DNA of 64,000 bases from an uncultured delta proteobacterium (GTDB taxonomy: Bacteria > Desulfobacterota > Syntrophia > Syntrophales > Smithellaceae). Position numbers and translations under genes: made by a program. Location of the stretch: contig CAVWEH010000001.1 in NCBI GenBank assembly GCA_963753975.1, forward strand, positions 64,001-128,000, written 5' to 3'. The notes beneath the pieces are model-generated. The model ran no database searches. It saw only the letters and a list, made by a program, of their open reading frames with translations, and was not told where the DNA came from. Shown piece by piece: positions 3,368-62,469 of the stretch (the first letter of the stretch is position 1; each line of letters begins with the position of its first letter).

Positions 3368-3690
3368 ATCAATCCCGCGACTTAGAATCCCCCGACTCCG
3401 GCTAGGGGAGGAAAGCGCCGTGACCCGCGGGAAGTCACGCTTTCCTCTGCTTTGCGAGATAATCACGGGCATTTGCAATGCCCTCCGCTTATGCGGGATC
3501 AATTCAACCTGCAAATATTGCTGCATTGTGTTGGCAATATTTGAGTTTCATTGATTCGACCTGCAAGCTTCAGCATGAGTGACCTCTTGTGACCTTCATG
3601 TTATTAGGTTATGCACTTCGTTTCTGAAGCTTGGGTCTCATTATTTCAGGGAGCCTCCGGCTCCTGCCAGACGGGGTTCCGCTTAATAAG
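3368..3690. repeat. Composite REP/BIME-like palindromic element (copy 1)
   Basis: Reverse complement of 3569-3628 matches 23099-23158 at 56/60 nt; 3371-3435 and 3650-3690 match 12281-12395; several hairpins. Confidence 0.8.
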
Positions 3691-11071: not shown

Positions 11072-11962
11072 TTATTTTTTGTAGAATGCTGTCTTCCACA
11101 CTCCGTTTTCAGCCAATATCCGTGAAGGTTCGTTAAGATTTGGCGGCCTTTTATAAGCGTCAATACTATATTCGGGATCATGCGGTAATTTGAGGCTCTT
11201 TCCTGCTAATTGCGGCAGAATGGGATAGATAATCTTTTTTTTGGTTGCAGAAAACAGTTCTTCAATATCTCTAAAAGCTGATAACTCTTCTATAGTTTTC
11301 AGGGTGGGCGGCATTAAAAGAATTTTCTGCTCGCTATGCATTGTGAGCGCGGCTTTAGGCGCTACCCAGAGTGATTCGGTAAGCTCTACCGCATCGGCTA
11401 CAGGTGTTTGGCATGGCGGCAACTTGGCCAGAAAAAAGCGAGTGTTAAATCTCATCTTTTCAAATTCCGGTGTAATCCAGTGGGCATAGGGGATCAAAGT
11501 GTCGGGGAATAACAAAATCTTTTCTCTGCGGACAATTTCCGCCAGCGTAATTTGCGAGGCATTAAGCTCCGGCCGGTAATCATTGAATCTTTGAAGAACG
11601 CTCTTGTCATAAAACGAAACAAAGTTTCCGGTAGTTTTGCCGCCTAAAAGAATGCCGGCTTCCTCGAAAGTTTCCCTGATGGCGGCGATAAACAATCCAC
11701 GCGCTTTTTCTATGGGCAAGCTGTTATCCTGCAGCAGCCGGCAGGGATCAAAGACATCCGTAGTCTTGATATAATTTTCAAGTTGCGGGTCGCTGTCGGA
11801 TTCTTCCAATTGCCCGCCGGGAAACACATACGCCCCGGCCATAAAAGCCTGCTTTTGATGGCGCCGCGCCAGAAATATTTCCCCGCCGCCGTCTTTCGCC
11901 GGCCGGATTAAAATCACGGTGGCCGCGTCTTTAAAAACAATTTTATTTGTCGTTGAATACAT
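11072..11962 (-). CDS. NUDIX hydrolase (Nudt19-like)
   Basis: VFPGG...AAIRETFEEAG split Nudix box, HWITP, RFNTRFF, PPT. Confidence 0.85.
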   Translation of the reverse strand: MYSTTNKIVFKDAATVILIRPAKDGGGEIFLARRHQKQAFMAGAYVFPGGQLEESDSDPQLENYIKTTDVFDPCRLLQDNSLPIEKARGLFIAAIRETFEEAGILLGGKTTGNFVSFYDKSVLQRFNDYRPELNASQITLAEIVRREKILLFPDTLIPYAHWITPEFEKMRFNTRFFLAKLPPCQTPVADAVELTESLWVAPKAALTMHSEQKILLMPPTLKTIEELSAFRDIEELFSATKKKIIYPILPQLAGKSLKLPHDPEYSIDAYKRPPNLNEPSRILAENGVWKTAFYKK

Positions 11963-12092
11963 AATGGAGATATTATTCTTACCTTGCCGAAAATTCACGT
12001 CACACTATCTGTGAATTCCACGGATATCAGTGCTATCACCAAAAGGAATATCGTCATAGCAAATTTTGTGGGCGAGAAATTTCCAACAGATT

Positions 12093-12155: not shown

Positions 12156-12178
12156 GTCAAATAAGCGGCTACAGCCGC

Positions 12179-12275
12179 AGACGGGAGTGGGAATCGAACC
12201 CACATCTACTCGTTTTCACGCGAGTAGCATCACAGGTTTGAAGCCTGCGCCGCACACCAGCACGAACGTCCCGTC
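12179..12275 (-). tRNA. Non-canonical tRNA-Sec-like gene, anticodon UCA, U73, no encoded CCA (possible selC*-type tRNA-Cys(UCA))
   Basis: GACGGGA/UCCCGUC acceptor, 6-bp D-stem with UGGU loop, GCAGG-CUUCAAA-CCUGU anticodon arm, long variable arm, GUGGG-UUCGAUU-CCCAC T-arm. Confidence 0.85.
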
Positions 12276-12278
12276 ATC

Positions 12279-12395
12279 TCAATCCCGCCACTTGAAATTC
12301 CCCGGCTCCAGCCGGGGAGGAAAGCGCCTTGATCCGTGGGAGGTCGCATTGTTTTAGAGAGCTTCCGGCTCCTGCCAGAGGAGGCTCCACTTATA
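12279..12395. repeat. REP-like element (copy 3)
   Basis: aatcccgc.actt..aatt.cccggctcc...ggggaggaaagcgcc and ccggctcctgccaga shared with 3371-3690; start also shared with 54983. Confidence 0.75.
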
Positions 12396-12616: not shown

Positions 12617-13552
12617 ATGAGCTCCGGACACTTCAAAAGCATTACCCTGCAGCAAATGGAAGCCGTTATCTCTCTTGTCGAAGAAGGGAGTTTCAGCCGT
12701 GCCGCCAAAAGAATGTCTCTGACTCAGCCGGCGTTGACCAAGAACATCAAAAATGCGGAAAATTATCTTGGTGTGCTGCTGGTTAATCGCAGCAATACGG
12801 GAGCTTCATTAACTCCGGAAGGAAAAATTCTCTACACTTACGCGCGGCGGATGGTTAAACTCAGAAATGAAGCAAAAGAAAAAATTCTCACACTGAACAA
12901 AAATATCGGCGGGAATATTTACATGAGCGCCAGCACTATTCCGTCGACATATATTCTTCCCCATGTCTTGAGTGCGTTTAGCAAAATACATCCCGATATA
13001 AGAGTTTATATTAAGACGGCGGACAGCGAAGAAGCCATGAACATGGTTCTGGAAAATGAGGTGGAAATTGGCTGCATCGGGAAACGGCCGTCAAATAGAA
13101 AACTGAAGGCGGAACCTCTCTGGAAGGATCGCCTTGTTCTGGCGATTCCCCGGCATCACCGCTGGCGCAAAAAGAAATCGATCGCCCTGTCCGAATTATT
13201 AGACGAGCCTTTTGTCATAAGAGAAAAAGGATCGGCGACGCGGGAATTGTTGGAATCATGTTTGAAGGAATCAAAATCAATAAGTCTTTCCCAGTTTAAT
13301 ATTTGCAGCGAACTGGGAAGCTCGGAGGCGATAAAAGAAGCGGTCATTGCCGGACTAGGGGTTTCCGTAATTTCTATTTATGCTGTCGAGCGGGAGTTAT
13401 ATCAGGGCTTACTTTTTGAAGTTCCAATTCAAAGCTGCAAGATGGAAAGAACCCTTTATTTAATTTATAAACGGCATTTCGATTTCCGGCCGGCACATAA
13501 AACATTCATCGATTTTCTGAAAAAAGATGCTTCGGGCAAGCACGGCCTGTAA
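12617..13552 (+). CDS. LysR family regulator, CysL-like / selenium-metabolism-associated type
   Basis: HTH 'GSFSRAAKRMSLTQPALT'; ASTIP, REKGSATR and GSSEAIKEAV motifs of the CysL-like subfamily. Confidence 0.9.
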   Translation: MSSGHFKSITLQQMEAVISLVEEGSFSRAAKRMSLTQPALTKNIKNAENYLGVLLVNRSNTGASLTPEGKILYTYARRMVKLRNEAKEKILTLNKNIGGNIYMSASTIPSTYILPHVLSAFSKIHPDIRVYIKTADSEEAMNMVLENEVEIGCIGKRPSNRKLKAEPLWKDRLVLAIPRHHRWRKKKSIALSELLDEPFVIREKGSATRELLESCLKESKSISLSQFNICSELGSSEAIKEAVIAGLGVSVISIYAVERELYQGLLFEVPIQSCKMERTLYLIYKRHFDFRPAHKTFIDFLKKDASGKHGL

Positions 13553-13613: not shown

Positions 13614-13916
13614 TTAATTATAATAGACCTCGTCATGTGAACCAACATCTAAAAGAATAACTTCTTTATCAACAATTTTTAGAAGTAGAACTATACGATA
13701 CTCATAGTTCAGCCTTACGACGTGCTTTCCTTGATGCCGCCCTCTAAGAGAATGAAGATGTAATTGCGGTGTCTGTGGATTTGTTTCAAGCAGGTGCAAT
13801 ACGTTTTTAAATAAACCGACTAACTCGGGATGCCGACGCAGAAATTTTCGAGCAGTTCGAAAAAAAGTATCCGTCCAAACTAATGAATAAGCTGGGTTCG
13901 TCTTGTCGGCGGGCAT
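13614..13916 (-). CDS. Type II TA toxin, RelE/YafQ-like
   Basis: LHLHSLRG, YRIV, LDVGSHDEVY motifs; downstream of antitoxin. Confidence 0.85.
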   Translation of the reverse strand: MPADKTNPAYSLVWTDTFFRTARKFLRRHPELVGLFKNVLHLLETNPQTPQLHLHSLRGRHQGKHVVRLNYEYRIVLLLKIVDKEVILLDVGSHDEVYYN

Positions 13917-13918
13917 TA

Positions 13919-14170
13919 TTAATTCTTTAGTAATTCGGTCATTAGTTGTCTGAAATTCCCCCGCTTTATGCGCCCGGCTTTCAGATCGTTTTCGGATGCG
14001 GCAAGACGTGCCTCGGCCAAATCACTAAGAATGTTTTCGTAATCTTTTTCAGACAGGATGACATACTTGGGCTGATTATTACGAACTATATGTACGGGAC
14101 CATCTACAAGCGCTTCATCAACGGCGCTGATGCCCCGACGCTTGATTTCCTGGGCGGCAATAGTTTTCAT
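13919..14170 (-). CDS. Type II TA antitoxin, Phd/YefM family
   Basis: MKTIAAQEIK...GPVHIVRNNQPKYVILS Phd pattern. Confidence 0.85.
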   Translation of the reverse strand: MKTIAAQEIKRRGISAVDEALVDGPVHIVRNNQPKYVILSEKDYENILSDLAEARLAASENDLKAGRIKRGNFRQLMTELLKN

Positions 14171-16238: not shown

Positions 16239-16293
16239 GATCAACGTAGAAATCAGCCTGAGCGTAGCGACCGGCTGAATTTTATTGTTAGAG
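16239..16293 (-). other. attC site 1
   Basis: Minus strand CTCTAAC...GTTGATC with inner TCAGCC/GGCTGA inverted repeat; 55 bp. Confidence 0.8.
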
Positions 16294-17245
16294 CTTCTCC
16301 TTTTTTTCCTTTCCTTACCAGCTCATCATACTGCTCAACGATGTCTTGATTATAAATTTGCTCCATCATTATTCCGAATGCCACATTATGCGAAAGTTGT
16401 TCTAGGAAAATAGCTTCAAGCCGGAATTCTTCCTGTTTATCAGGATGCCAATTATGTTTTCTTTTAGTTGAATAGTGATGTAAATAACCCCTCATCATTA
16501 CTAGTTGATTTATTATTTGCTCAACATCTTTGGACAAGTACTGGCTTTCATATTTACTTCTCATTTCAACTGGAAGATGCCGCCGAAATTCTTCGTTCCC
16601 CAAAACACTACGTATATTCTCAATAAATTCTGGAGATTCTTTTAGCGCTTTCTCAACTGCATAATTCTTATTCTTGCCTCCAGCATAATAAGACTCAATG
16701 ACAAAGTAGAAATTGTAAATTGCCTCAATATAATCTTGGTTCTTAACATCAACCCTGCCACGCTTATTAAAAGATAGCAATACATTGTGCTGCTTGGCTT
16801 TGACCGATGCAATTATTGGCCTAGCAATCAAATCAAAGGATACTGGCATTATTTCATTATCTTTAAGTTCTTGAAAACCTACAGAGAAGTTAAAGATCTG
16901 TAATTTTTCCTTCTCTTCTTCATTTTCAGCAATCCATTCATGCTTTGGCCTGCGTATTCCGATAGATTCCACTCCCCAAAAAGACAACATTCCTTCGATT
17001 TGCCTCATTATTTCTTCTACTTCATAGATGCGAGGACTGGTTACATTTACGTGAAGAGTAATGCCTGGCTGAGGATGATTGATTACACTTGGTAATTCAT
17101 GGTCAGTTATTTCGAACGACACACGTATATTTCTAATGAATCCTCGCTCGACATCAAATTCGAACAAGAAATCGTCAACCTCAAATGAACAGATCTGTTG
17201 AGGCTTTATCCTTCCTTTTATCTCGAATGTGTAGCGGCATCTCAT
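16253..17245 (-). CDS. Integron cassette protein with HEPN-like C-terminus
   Basis: 'IYNFYFVIE' and 'MRGYLHH' (Rx4H); bounded by attC sites. Confidence 0.7.
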   Translation of the reverse strand: MRCRYTFEIKGRIKPQQICSFEVDDFLFEFDVERGFIRNIRVSFEITDHELPSVINHPQPGITLHVNVTSPRIYEVEEIMRQIEGMLSFWGVESIGIRRPKHEWIAENEEEKEKLQIFNFSVGFQELKDNEIMPVSFDLIARPIIASVKAKQHNVLLSFNKRGRVDVKNQDYIEAIYNFYFVIESYYAGGKNKNYAVEKALKESPEFIENIRSVLGNEEFRRHLPVEMRSKYESQYLSKDVEQIINQLVMMRGYLHHYSTKRKHNWHPDKQEEFRLEAIFLEQLSHNVAFGIMMEQIYNQDIVEQYDELVRKGKKGEALTIKFSRSLRSG

Positions 17246-17259
17246 GTTTGCTTTTTGTA

Positions 17260-17318
17260 CTCTAACGCTAGGCATCAGCGGCGGTGTCAGCGCGTCTGCG
17301 TGGATACCATGGTTATGT
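17260..17318 (-). other. attC site 2
   Basis: Minus strand ACATAAC...GTTAGAG, 59-bp imperfect palindrome between cassette ORFs. Confidence 0.75.
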
Positions 17319-17338
17319 GATAACTTCTTCCTTGAAAA

Positions 17339-18145
17339 TCATTTTTTATTTTTTAATGATCGAACTTTTTTCCCCATATCTGTTGGTTGGATATACCCAG
17401 TTTCTTTCTCAAAGTAGTCACGTGTCTTATGCAAATACTCGAATAATTCCTTTGAACCTAATTTTTTTGCGAGACCTTCAAATACAGTTATTGCTCTTTG
17501 CGTGTAAACCTCTATCTGACCGATGCACATGTGTACTCGTGGAGTTGCGCGCATCCCCCCTAAATGAAATTTGGGAGGGCTACCACCATACGTCTCCATA
17601 ATATGTGGATAAGCGCCATGCACATAGCCAGAAAGAGCGTCATTGGTGACTTGAAACATCTTCTGCAAATCGCTTGGATTAACATAAGGCCCCATCTGTC
17701 GCGCAACGGAAGCCCATATTTTCCTTTTCGGAACAGTCTCACGACGTGTCTCATTTTGCAAAGGATTATTAGGGTTTTTAAATTCTTCATTAAAAAAGTC
17801 CTCTATAAACTTCCTCTGGTGATTATCAAGTGTGCTGCTTTCAGCGTTTTCAAGAATGAATAACATTTCATGTAAAAAGTCATCTAAGGTACGCAAAAGC
17901 ACCATGGCTTCTTGAACAAAACCCCCAGTCAGCAGGAACAAACAAGCGTTCAATCCACTAACGACACGTACACCTTTTAGGAAAGCAACGTGATAAACAG
18001 TGTGCTCCTTATATCTAAATTGTTTTTTACCAGAGACATCGATGAATACAGGCTTTGGGACTAGGCCGTCGTCAATCGCTCTAATCGAAGCAGCAAGCCG
18101 ATTAACACACTTTGTAATTACAGTTAGTAATTTGATTTGGTCCAT
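17339..18145 (-). CDS. Integron cassette protein, DUF5677/HEPN-like
   Basis: 'LLRTLDD' and 'DALSGYVHG' motifs; AT-rich; flanked by attC. Confidence 0.65.
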   Translation of the reverse strand: MDQIKLLTVITKCVNRLAASIRAIDDGLVPKPVFIDVSGKKQFRYKEHTVYHVAFLKGVRVVSGLNACLFLLTGGFVQEAMVLLRTLDDFLHEMLFILENAESSTLDNHQRKFIEDFFNEEFKNPNNPLQNETRRETVPKRKIWASVARQMGPYVNPSDLQKMFQVTNDALSGYVHGAYPHIMETYGGSPPKFHLGGMRATPRVHMCIGQIEVYTQRAITVFEGLAKKLGSKELFEYLHKTRDYFEKETGYIQPTDMGKKVRSLKNKK

Positions 18146-54982: not shown

Positions 54983-55050
54983 TCAATCCCGCGACTTGGA
55001 ATTTCCCGGCTCCTGTAACCTAAAGGTCATCTGCGACCGGAGGTGTCTCC
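54983..55050. repeat. REP-like element (copy 5)
   Basis: tcaatcccgcgacttggaatttcccggctcc plus taacct.aaggtca module shared with other copies. Confidence 0.65.
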
Positions 55051-61348: not shown

Positions 61349-61365
61349 TGAATTATTTGCCGTCC

Positions 61366-61447
61366 TCTCCCTTCGCTGGCATTATCCAGATCAGGTTCAA
61401 TGGGTATAATCTCAGATCCGGCGTGCACCGGGCCACCCCTGGTTACT
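61366..61447 (-). promoter_or_regulatory. TPP riboswitch
   Basis: Minus strand GGGGTG...CTGAGA..ATACCC..GAACCTGATCTGGATAATGCCAGCGAAGGGA upstream of thiM-thiE. Confidence 0.95.
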
Positions 61448-61509
61448 ATTGTTTACCAACATAATTAAAATTCGTCAACTTACTTTAATGAGCTGTTAGC
61501 GAATCATAA

Positions 61510-62469
61510 TTAAGTGCCTATTCCCTCGAATAAAACGGTGGAGAGGTATCGCTCACCGGCATCGGGAAAAATGACGACAATATTTTTTCCGGCAAATTCA
61601 TCCAGCTTGGCGAGCCTCACCGCTGCTGCTCCCGCCGCGCCGCTGGAAATGCCGACTAAAATTCCTTCTTCCCGTGCCAGTCTGCGGGCAAATTCCACAG
61701 CTTCCATACTTTCTATCTGTTCCGTGCGATCGACGAGGGATAAATCAAGCGTGTCCGGAATAAATCCGGCGCCGATTCCTTGGATTTTATGCGGCCCCGG
61801 TTTCAACTCTCGACCCGCAAGTTTTTGGCTGATGACCGGGCTTTCTTTTGGTTCCACTGCCACCGAAATAATTTTTTTCTTCATTTTATTTTTAATGCAG
61901 CGGGATATTCCGGTAATTGTTCCACCGGTTCCGACTCCTGACACAAGAATATCAACCGCTCCCTCCGTATCGTTCCAGATTTCCGGTCCGGTCGTCCTTT
62001 CGTGAATAGCGGGGTTGGCCGGATTCTTGAACTGCTGCGGTAAAAAATACTTCTTGGGGTCGGAAGCGACGATGGCTTCTGCTTTGGCAATTGCACCCTT
62101 CATGCCTTCTACCCCGGGAGTAAGAATAAGATTAGCTCCGAACGCAGCTAATACTTTCCGGCGTTCGATGCTCATGGTCTCCGGCATGGTCAGCGTTAAT
62201 TTGTATCCGTGCGCCGCCGCCACATAAGCCAGGGCAATACCGGTATTACCACTGGTCGGTTCAATAATTTCCACGCCGGGTTTCATGAGCCCTTTTTTCT
62301 CCGCATCCCAGATCATGGCGGCGCCGATGCGGCACTTGACGGAATACGCGGGGTTTCGCCCCTCAATCTTAGCCAGAACAATGGCCTTCGCACCTTTGGT
62401 TACATGATTTAGTTTTATCAGCGGCGTATTGCCGATTGATTGTGAATTATCCGAATATATTTTTTTCAT
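61510..62469 (-). CDS. cysK: Cysteine synthase A
   Basis: SVKCRIG PLP lysine, [20 protein letters not shown]. Confidence 0.97.

Follow-up and report, generated by a model that had tools for sequence, protein, structure and literature searches.

A selC*-like tRNA with a UCA anticodon and a strictly 7/5 branch in a selenium gene neighbourhood of an uncultured Smithellaceae bacterium

The tRNA gene at 12179-12275

We analyzed a 64,000-nt stretch of DNA from an uncultured delta proteobacterium of the family Smithellaceae (GCA_963753975.1, contig CAVWEH010000001.1, positions 64,001 to 128,000), referred to here as the window, and the subject of this report is a tRNA gene with the opal anticodon UCA at positions 12179-12275. 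An earlier note, made from the letters of the window, had placed here a tRNA with a body like that of selenocysteine (Sec) tRNA and a cysteine (Cys)-type discriminator base; its coordinates hold, and the strand is minus. Such tRNAs recall the selC* tRNA-Cys, defined by a tRNA-Sec-like body, U73, a GCA or UCA anticodon and constant co-occurrence with selABCD (Mukai 2017, NAR 45:2776, PMC5389517), so that the mimics of tRNA-Sec to which the note alluded are a published class. The gene comprises the following features.

12179..12275, minus strand: selC*-like tRNA gene of type A (defined below), 97 nt including U73, running from 12275 down to 12179.
12239..12241, minus strand: anticodon UCA, reading UGA, followed by A37 and A38 (sequence reading and alignment to the Rfam model).
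12165..12178, minus strand: terminator-like G+C hairpin of 5 G-C pairs with a T-rich tail (TTATTTG), directly 3' of U73; it folds in the minimum free energy (MFE) structure.

The cloverleaf was read from the sequence, and MFE folding of 236 nt without constraints gave the same structure. Its acceptor stem is 7 bp long and includes G1-C72 and A2-U71; after a 3-nt connector come a 6-bp D-stem, which includes three G.U pairs and closes a 4-nt loop, an anticodon stem of 6 bp when C26-G44 is counted in, a long variable arm with a 7-bp stem, and a 5-bp T-stem. The discriminator is U73 (base 12179, on the RNA strand), on which a contig from sequencing run X3 agrees, and CCA is not encoded, the hairpin at 12165-12178 beginning at once. 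Sequence and fold thereby confirm what the earlier note had described, namely the UCA anticodon, the 6-bp D-stem with its 4-nt loop, the long variable arm, and a 12-bp acceptor plus T branch divided 7/5 with an A-U second pair, U73 and no CCA. The Rfam tRNA-Sec model RF01852 matches positions 12180-12275 with 59.3 bits (gathering score 47, E-value 1.7e-9), and ARAGORN does not call the tRNA at 12179-12275.

The same note had cautioned that the window contains apparent indel errors. At the tRNA locus this was ruled out by independent copies: the identical tRNA occurs in the related genome G011 and on six metagenome contigs, a DNA contig of run X3 spans 12178-12284 with 0 differences, and a contig from RNA library X15 spans 12183-12279 with 0 differences. 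A near-identical tRNA is found in G005 (survey of second copies in relatives, below), on the DNA contig of run X1 all differences lie 3' of the tRNA, and the contig of RNA library X16 covers the tRNA with 2 differences. All four runs were compared as contigs, and the best run shared 0.20 of the sampled words of the whole stretch. As the RNA-library matches are assembled contigs, they demonstrate presence and not transcription, strand, transcript ends or level.

Distribution of the tRNA family

The survey covered 31 genomes, the window's own (G000) and 30 relatives. Canonical selC was found in 24 genomes and is near invariant, all 24 genes having an 8/5 branch, G73 and an encoded CCA. A true second copy is present in 15 genomes including the window's, that is, 14 further copies among the 30 relatives; the second matches in G022 and G026 were tRNA-Ser(CGA) false positives and were set aside. 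Every second copy carries U73 (15/15) and none encodes CCA (15/15); 14 have the anticodon UCA and one (G029) has GCA. In the 15-sequence alignment of these copies, C3-G70 is invariant.

A covariance model was built from the 15 second copies, with which members score at least 76 bits and canonical selC cross-matches at most 57 bits. The window tRNA scores 84.2 bits, partly by construction since its own sequence is in the model, and independent records from Smithella sp. SCADC and Syntrophaceae reach 98-115 bits. Among the matches listed, the best-scoring named records are Smithella sp. SCADC, another Smithella metagenome-assembled genome (MAG), Syntrophaceae MAGs and a 'Deltaproteobacteria bacterium' MAG. 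The first pattern used on metagenome contigs was permissive and took in many unrelated tRNAs; it served only to obtain organism names and input for the covariance model.

With the covariance model, members were detected in 8 of 151 genomes sampled evenly from the order, these 8 belonging to two families. The phylum-wide sample, likewise of 151 genomes, also had members in 8, and the six outside the window's family all combine GCA with U73; the wider family therefore consists of long-arm tRNAs-Cys, of which the UCA forms are a restricted offshoot. Long-arm U73 tRNAs of this family with GCA are also common in Acidobacteriota records among the matches listed (L098, L097, L080, L119, L083, L087 and L073; Acidobacteriota and other MAGs). 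Genome G068 has two GCA selC*-like tRNA genes 6 kb apart (L218, 3001-3093 and 9265-9360), the first of them inside the selenium gene cluster described below. The copy in G150 (L220, 3001-3094) is a degenerate type B form with C at position 33, several broken pairs and a score of 56.7 bits, and is probably a pseudogene.

Branch geometry and covariation

The 15-sequence alignment comprises the window's own tRNA, two further type A sequences, type B sequences and GCA forms. Compensatory changes were found in 12 of the 24 cloverleaf pairs, a number that was reached by 0 of 500 shuffles, and 94% of cells are paired in the true structure, against 27-53% in slid controls. The cloverleaf is real and under selection. 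The branch is always 12 bp in the family, and its division between acceptor and T-stem varies with position 65: paired with position 8, this base makes the branch 8/4, and paired with position 49, 7/5. Three forms were distinguished.

Strict 8/4 (G015 and G016): a C-G pair with position 8 is the sole option for position 65.
Common type B (most of the genus): A65 has two possible partners, U8 (8/4) and U49 (7/5).
Type A, the form in the window (G000, G005, G011 and others): position 65 pairs only with position 49 (G-C), C8 lying opposite C65, giving 7/5.

A type A-specific scan of metagenome contigs returned 21 loci, to which were added G049, from another family, and the marine MAG L081; together they give 14 distinct type A sequences. 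The search pattern fixed the T-arm and the 3' acceptor strand, so conservation there is uninformative, and U73, although present in 14/14 sequences, is a base fixed by the pattern. Across the 14 sequences 97.9% of cells are paired, and compensatory changes occur at acceptor pair 4-69, in the anticodon stem and in 6 of the 7 variable-arm pairs. The UCA anticodon is kept in all 14. C26-G44 is likewise invariant (14/14), whereas a 26-44 pair is found in only 2 of the 14 distinct rows of the mixed alignment; the extra pair pointed out by the earlier note is therefore present but marks type A only, not the family. The note had also allowed for an 8/4 branch with a bulged C. This alternative was rejected: C8 faces C65, and four of the 14 distinct type A sequences have C or U in place of the G9 that it requires.

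Mukai 2017 lists the type B UCA form among 'selC-like tRNAsCys', from Smithella sp. SCADC and one metagenome contig (PMC5389517). The 5' acceptor string and the T-arm/3' acceptor string of the window tRNA have 0 occurrences in the accessible text of its supplement. The strictly 7/5 selC*-like lineage is thus conserved, absent from the published table, and new.

Selenium gene neighbourhood

The genes and features around the tRNA are as follows.

12617..13552, plus strand: LysR_Se gene (selenium metabolism-associated LysR regulator), divergent from the tRNA (NF040786, 291.1 bits, cut-off 250).
11072..11998, minus strand: NUDIX-like open reading frame (ORF) of 308 aa, downstream of the tRNA (weak PF00293 match, 25.6 bits).
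12390..12395, minus strand: -10-like box TATAAG, placed by alignment and by resemblance to the consensus only.
12285..12389 (+/-5 nt), no strand: small dispersed repeat of about 105-110 nt, specific to this genome and inserted between the 5' end of the tRNA and the -10-like box.

LysR_Se is a single-copy gene in this genome (tblastn). YedE, YedF, DUF3343 and LysR_Se have been tied to selenium use (Lin 2015, PMC5322559). We compared the neighbourhoods of 20 tRNA genes from 19 genomes within uniform flanks of about 6 kb. The reconstructed ancestral order is LysR_Se divergent from YedE, the tRNA, an ORF of about 180 aa, an ORF of about 297 aa, a SirA/YedF-like gene and the NUDIX-like gene. YedE is a putative selenium transporter (TIGR04112, more than 460 bits); the ~180-aa ORF, which follows the tRNA in type B loci, belongs to PF11823 ('putative Se/S carrier'); and the ~297-aa ORF is Carb_kinase/YjeF_C-like (PF01256, 47 bits; L052, 2115-3008, and orthologues). 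Orthologues of the latter occur in G002-G004, G006-G009, G012, G029, G049, G068 and G114, making it a constant member of the YedE/Se-carrier/SirA cluster, and a full-length YedF (TIGR03527) is found at some selC*-like loci. The GCA homologues of G029 and G068 lie in the same YedE/Se-carrier/kinase-like cluster. The NUDIX-like ORF is a conserved flank of the cluster and probably no functional partner of the tRNA. A conserved downstream protein partner was rejected, as the ORFs of about 300 aa belong to two unrelated families.

LysR_Se, YedE or YedF lies within 6 kb of the tRNA in 17 of the 19 genomes; of the two exceptions, G005 has none of them and G010 only a 33-aa YedE remnant. LysR_Se itself was seen beside the cluster in 13/19. 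In G000 and G011 all that is left of the cluster is LysR_Se, the divergently oriented tRNA gene and then the NUDIX-like gene. A tblastn search of the window's genome gave no match below E 0.05 for YedE, YedF, the Se/S carrier or the kinase-like gene (control, 2e-178). G000, G011, G005 and G010 have thus kept the tRNA but lost protein genes of the cluster.

Of the 22 further type A loci, from the 21 metagenome contigs and L081, 8 lie in the same cluster or beside LysR_Se, two of the 8 probably being the same contigs as G049 and G011. All four scanned loci of an L081-like subgroup directly follow an HdrA2-like gene; IscA/HesB_Se comes next in two of them, one also with a TsoB-like rhodanese, and an FdhA/NuoG-like fusion in the other two. 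The remaining type A loci are on short contigs or have nothing selenium-related nearby (for example, L243).

In the accessible main text of Mukai 2017, the words LysR, transporter, operon and YedE have 0 occurrences, although the supplementary figures S8-S13 may show neighbourhoods, and no paper describing a 7/5 selC* tRNA or its LysR_Se/YedE context was found in open-access text. It is new that selC*-like genes consistently lie within a selenium cluster, with LysR_Se at its flank in most genomes, and that the tRNA was retained after loss of the cluster protein genes.

Upstream of the tRNA, the -10-like box has counterparts (TATAAG/TATAAT) 6-7 nt from the first base of the tRNA in G011, G005 and G049. 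The repeat insert is absent from these three genomes (alignment), and the empty site is seen on the X3 and X1 contigs. At least 20 partial copies of the repeat, 82-93% identical and with internal hairpins, were found on four contigs, and the window has further partial copies at about 3405-3432, 3634-3671 and 54983-55013. A second promoter-like site lies further upstream, at 12450-12423.

Selenocysteine machinery, tRNAs and CysRS of the genome

The genome of the window (2.43 Mb, 6 contigs, 95% complete) carries a canonical selC on another contig (G000:C4:317943-318040; 73 bits, 8/5, G73, encoded CCA), which ARAGORN calls as tRNA-SeC; the separate canonical gene that the earlier note had suggested looking for is therefore present. 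The genome also has selA and one selB (363.6 bits). The extra selB that the note had raised was not found in the genome, the second-best match being the single EF-Tu (756 bits). The selD gene has one in-frame TGA, read as Sec in the active-site motif GAGUACK. Across the order, SelD carries the TGA in 26 of 26 full-length matches, with or without a selC*-like tRNA, and thus offers no contrast between the two groups. In further probes for UGA targets, Fdh-alpha gave no match, and HdrA2 and the molybdopterin family had no TGA inside their matches; these probes were uninformative. The tRNA-Cys of the genome (C2:510085-510160) is ordinary and has U73.

The note had also suggested a search for an extra cysS. 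A second cysteinyl-tRNA synthetase (CysRS) does exist, outside the window: a 771-aa protein at G000:C1:396503-398818 (L010, 583-2898, plus strand), in which a PALP (cysteine-synthase-like) domain is joined to a complete CysRS. It keeps the catalytic, DALR and C-terminal anticodon-binding domains; by eye, HIGH is replaced by HLGN, and FPHCENI stands at the site of FPHHENE in the housekeeping CysRS. No description of a CysK-CysRS fusion was found in the open-access literature. The fusion is full-length in 25 of the 31 surveyed genomes, each of which also has an ordinary CysRS (about 33% identity), is fragmentary in 4, and had no match in G005 (66% complete) or G019. It occurs in G014, G020, G021 and G024, which are genomes without any tRNA-Sec match. 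Being order-wide, it was rejected as a dedicated partner of the window tRNA, and so the suggestion holds for the existence of a second CysRS and not for its specificity; the fusion could still charge the window tRNA.

Amino acid identity and proposed function

By its sequence, the window tRNA belongs to the selC* tRNA-Cys class, as a 7/5 variant rather than a typical member. Our preferred reading, to which we assign a probability of roughly 0.6, is that it is a functional tRNA-Cys of this class: a Cys-accepting, EF-Tu-compatible opal decoder under selenium control, which would provide a Cys fallback at selenoprotein UGA codons. The earlier note had proposed an opal tRNA-Cys that rescues selenoprotein UGA codons when selenium is scarce; its class is borne out by the selC* membership, and the scarcity idea gains support from the LysR_Se/YedE/Se-carrier/YedF context. 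Cys charging, delivery by EF-Tu, regulation by LysR_Se and the physiological role, rescue included, are what we infer. The functional idea itself is not new, since SelC*/CysRS* have been posited to serve selenoprotein synthesis under selenium scarcity (PMC9437257).

The tRNA would be transcribed from its own promoter beside the divergent gene for the selenium-responsive LysR_Se, which probably controls it; in most relatives, transcription would occur inside the LysR_Se-flanked operon (YedE, tRNA, Se/S carrier, kinase-like gene, SirA). The transcript would then be processed, CCA would be added post-transcriptionally, and CysRS would charge the tRNA with cysteine via U73 and C3-G70. With a 12-bp 7/5 branch in place of the 13-bp 8/5 branch, the tRNA would be carried by EF-Tu and not by SelB: an 8-bp acceptor stem is reported as the determinant of SelB binding and EF-Tu rejection (review PMC7609411), and the 7 bp of the window tRNA point to EF-Tu. 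Cys-tRNA(UCA) would read UGA as Cys, so that at low selenium or selenophosphate Cys would be inserted at selenoprotein UGA codons, including that of the Sec-containing selD, instead of termination.

For published relatives a link to Cys has been reported, the selC* tRNA of D. tiedjei being cysteinylated in vitro and that of D. biacutus inserting Cys at UGA in E. coli (PMC5389517). Cys is favoured over Ser by the invariance of U73 and C3-G70, by U73 in the genome's own tRNA-Cys and by the GCA homologues in the same cluster.

Several points weigh against the proposal of a Cys fallback. U34 takes away a major anticodon determinant of CysRS, and seryl-tRNA synthetase (SerRS) may likewise accept a long variable arm combined with G73 or U73 (PMC5389517). 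The genome has no dedicated CysRS*, its only extra CysRS being the order-wide PALP fusion. As Sec-SelD is universal regardless of the tRNA, the tRNA is not needed to bootstrap it. With about 30% of crudely called genes (547/1848) ending in TGA, efficient opal suppression through EF-Tu would carry a cost unless the tRNA is weak or under tight regulation. YedE operons may be induced by selenium lack or by selenium supply, and the repeat between the promoter box and the tRNA may impair expression.

A bolder extension of the Cys fallback, which we put forward only tentatively, is a selenium-sensing recoding switch. At low selenophosphate, LysR_Se would turn on Cys-tRNA(UCA) and the selenoproteome would be converted to its Cys forms in translation. 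The three branch forms would then mark a hand-over from SelB to EF-Tu, in which the strict 8/4 tRNAs (G015, G016) still mimic tRNA-Sec for delivery directed by SelB and the selenocysteine insertion sequence (SECIS), the common form slips between 8/4 and 7/5, and the strict 7/5 form is served fully by EF-Tu without SECIS. If this is true, the tRNA, kept with LysR_Se alone after the transporter and carrier were lost, would be the indispensable output of the regulon.

An unlikely alternative is that the gene encodes a second tRNA-Sec, which would be charged by SerRS via its long arm, converted by SelA and carried by EF-Tu on its 12-bp branch, giving SECIS-independent Sec insertion when selenium is plentiful. 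The Sec-like body (6-bp D-stem, 4-nt D-loop), the Rfam tRNA-Sec score above threshold and the operon shared with a putative selenium transporter and carrier are consistent with it. However, the five SerRS substrates of this genome, four tRNAs-Ser and the tRNA-Sec, all have G73 and all start with G1-G2-A3, while the window tRNA has U73 and G1-A2-C3; homologues in the cluster and across the phylum bear the Cys anticodon GCA; and the genome already has a canonical selC of the kind that is near invariant in the order.

We also doubt that the product is a tRNA-like regulatory RNA acting off the ribosome, a decoy or sensor for SelA, SelB, SelD or LysR_Se that tunes the selenium regulon. Non-translational roles were left open by Mukai 2017 (PMC5389517), the gene lies in or beside a regulator-controlled operon, and it lacks the CCA that about 44 of the 45 tRNAs of the genome encode. 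Against this, the whole cloverleaf is kept as in working tRNAs, with its T-loop and its anticodon loop (U33, UCA, A37, A38), the family uses only the anticodons UCA and GCA, and published relatives decode UGA in E. coli (PMC5389517).

Just as doubtful is a silenced relic confined to the window's genome, where the operon would have been deleted and the promoter uncoupled by the repeat, the copies of the relatives being functional. The absence of YedE, the Se/S carrier, the kinase-like gene and YedF from the tblastn search and the position of the ~105-110-nt repeat between the -10-like box and the tRNA fit such a history, and the degenerate G150 copy indicates that decay occurs in the family. 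The tRNA is nevertheless identical to that of G011 and six metagenome contigs, with no pair disrupted, and LysR_Se is intact; a leader of about 110 nt could be removed by RNase P, and the second promoter-like site is available upstream.

An assembly or sequencing artefact of canonical selC has nothing in its favour beyond the general indel caveat and is already refuted, the canonical gene being on another contig, the two sequences differing along their whole length and the same tRNA coming from independent genomes and runs.

What is known of selC* tRNAs comes from a single study combining bioinformatics and biochemistry, and a natural role has only been posited for them. The LysR_Se-flanked cluster (13/19 genomes), of which the tRNA is sometimes the sole gene left, predicts selenium-dependent expression from a defined promoter region, and the selenium-scarcity model thereby becomes directly testable. 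The natural series of strict 8/4, slippable and strict 7/5 forms is suited to asking which elongation factor delivers the tRNA and whether SECIS is needed. If the Cys fallback is true, it would mean that free-living anaerobes reassign a stop/Sec codon in a regulated and reversible way, and it would provide a natural opal Cys-suppressor scaffold.

Other features of the window

Further features were recorded in the window as side observations.

13614-14170, minus strand: weak YafQ-like toxin (27.9 bits) and Phd/YefM antitoxin (36.1 bits), just past the LysR_Se gene.
16253-18145, minus strand: adjacent ORFs whose weak matches, to HEPN_Apea (23.6 bits) and DUF5677 (25.3 bits), fall short of the Pfam cut-offs; possibly a defence-type pair.
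61351-61450, minus strand: thiamine pyrophosphate (TPP) riboswitch (59.5 bits, gathering score 54.3).
About 61525-62469, minus strand: stand-alone cysteine-synthase-like gene.

Comparison with known systems

The window tRNA agrees with the selC* class in U73, UCA, the long arm, the lengthened anticodon stem, the coexistence with selA, selB, selC and selD, and homology. It departs from the class in the acceptor, as the lengthened 8-bp stem (8/4 or 8/5) is absent and only 7/5 fits. The closest published relative is the type B tRNA of Smithella sp. SCADC, from the same bacterial family, which has the same U73, UCA, G1-A2-C3, lack of CCA, long arm and 6-bp D-stem with 4-nt loop, and lies in the same selenium cluster in related genomes. 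The two types differ in that A65 allows type B either 8/4 or 7/5 (only 8/4 in G015 and G016) and type A is confined to 7/5; type A further has C26-G44, another variable arm and a place in the operon after SirA or alone.

The selC* tRNAs of D. biacutus and other Desulfobacterales share with the window tRNA the opal anticodon, U73, a Sec-like body and the full Sec machinery (PMC5389517, PMC7609411). They have A1:U72 and a modified 8/4 branch with a bulged A51a, whereas the window tRNA has G1:C72 and 7/5. Downstream of the Desulfobacterales genes lie a CysRS* without the anticodon-binding domain and SelB*; in the window the downstream ORF is NUDIX-like, with no selB*, and the extra CysRS of the genome, unlike CysRS*, is PALP-fused and full-length with its anticodon-binding domains. 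The GCA selC* tRNAs (Thermodesulfovibrio, Desulfomonile and others, as well as G029, G068 and the six phylum-wide members) are similar in their long arm, U73 and Sec-like body, but they read Cys codons and mostly encode CCA, while the window tRNA reads UGA and has no CCA.

Canonical tRNA-Sec resembles the window tRNA in UCA, the 6-bp D-stem with 4-nt loop, the 6-bp anticodon stem and the long arm, and the T-arm is almost identical to that of the genome's own selC. Canonical tRNA-Sec (8/5, or the minor 12-bp 8/4 form) has an 8-bp acceptor, G73 and G1-G2-A3, compared with 7 bp, U73, G1-A2-C3 and no CCA in the window. The allo-tRNAs (Mukai et al. 2017) have 8/4 or 9/3 branches and serine or alanine identity, from which the 7/5 branch sets the window tRNA apart. 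Canonical tRNA-Cys shares U73 and 7/5 and differs in having GCA and a short variable loop in place of UCA and a long arm.

The nearest regulatory parallel is the HrsM/LysR_Se switch of Methanococcus, in which HrsM, an archaeal orthologue of LysR_Se, keeps Cys-isoform hydrogenases repressed as long as selenium is available (Lin 2015, PMC5322559). In both cases a regulator of the LysR_Se family stands beside a Cys back-up, with the same proposed logic. The back-up in Methanococcus consists of separate Cys-encoding genes, whereas that in the window would be a UGA-recoding tRNA, its regulation being suggested by the gene arrangement.

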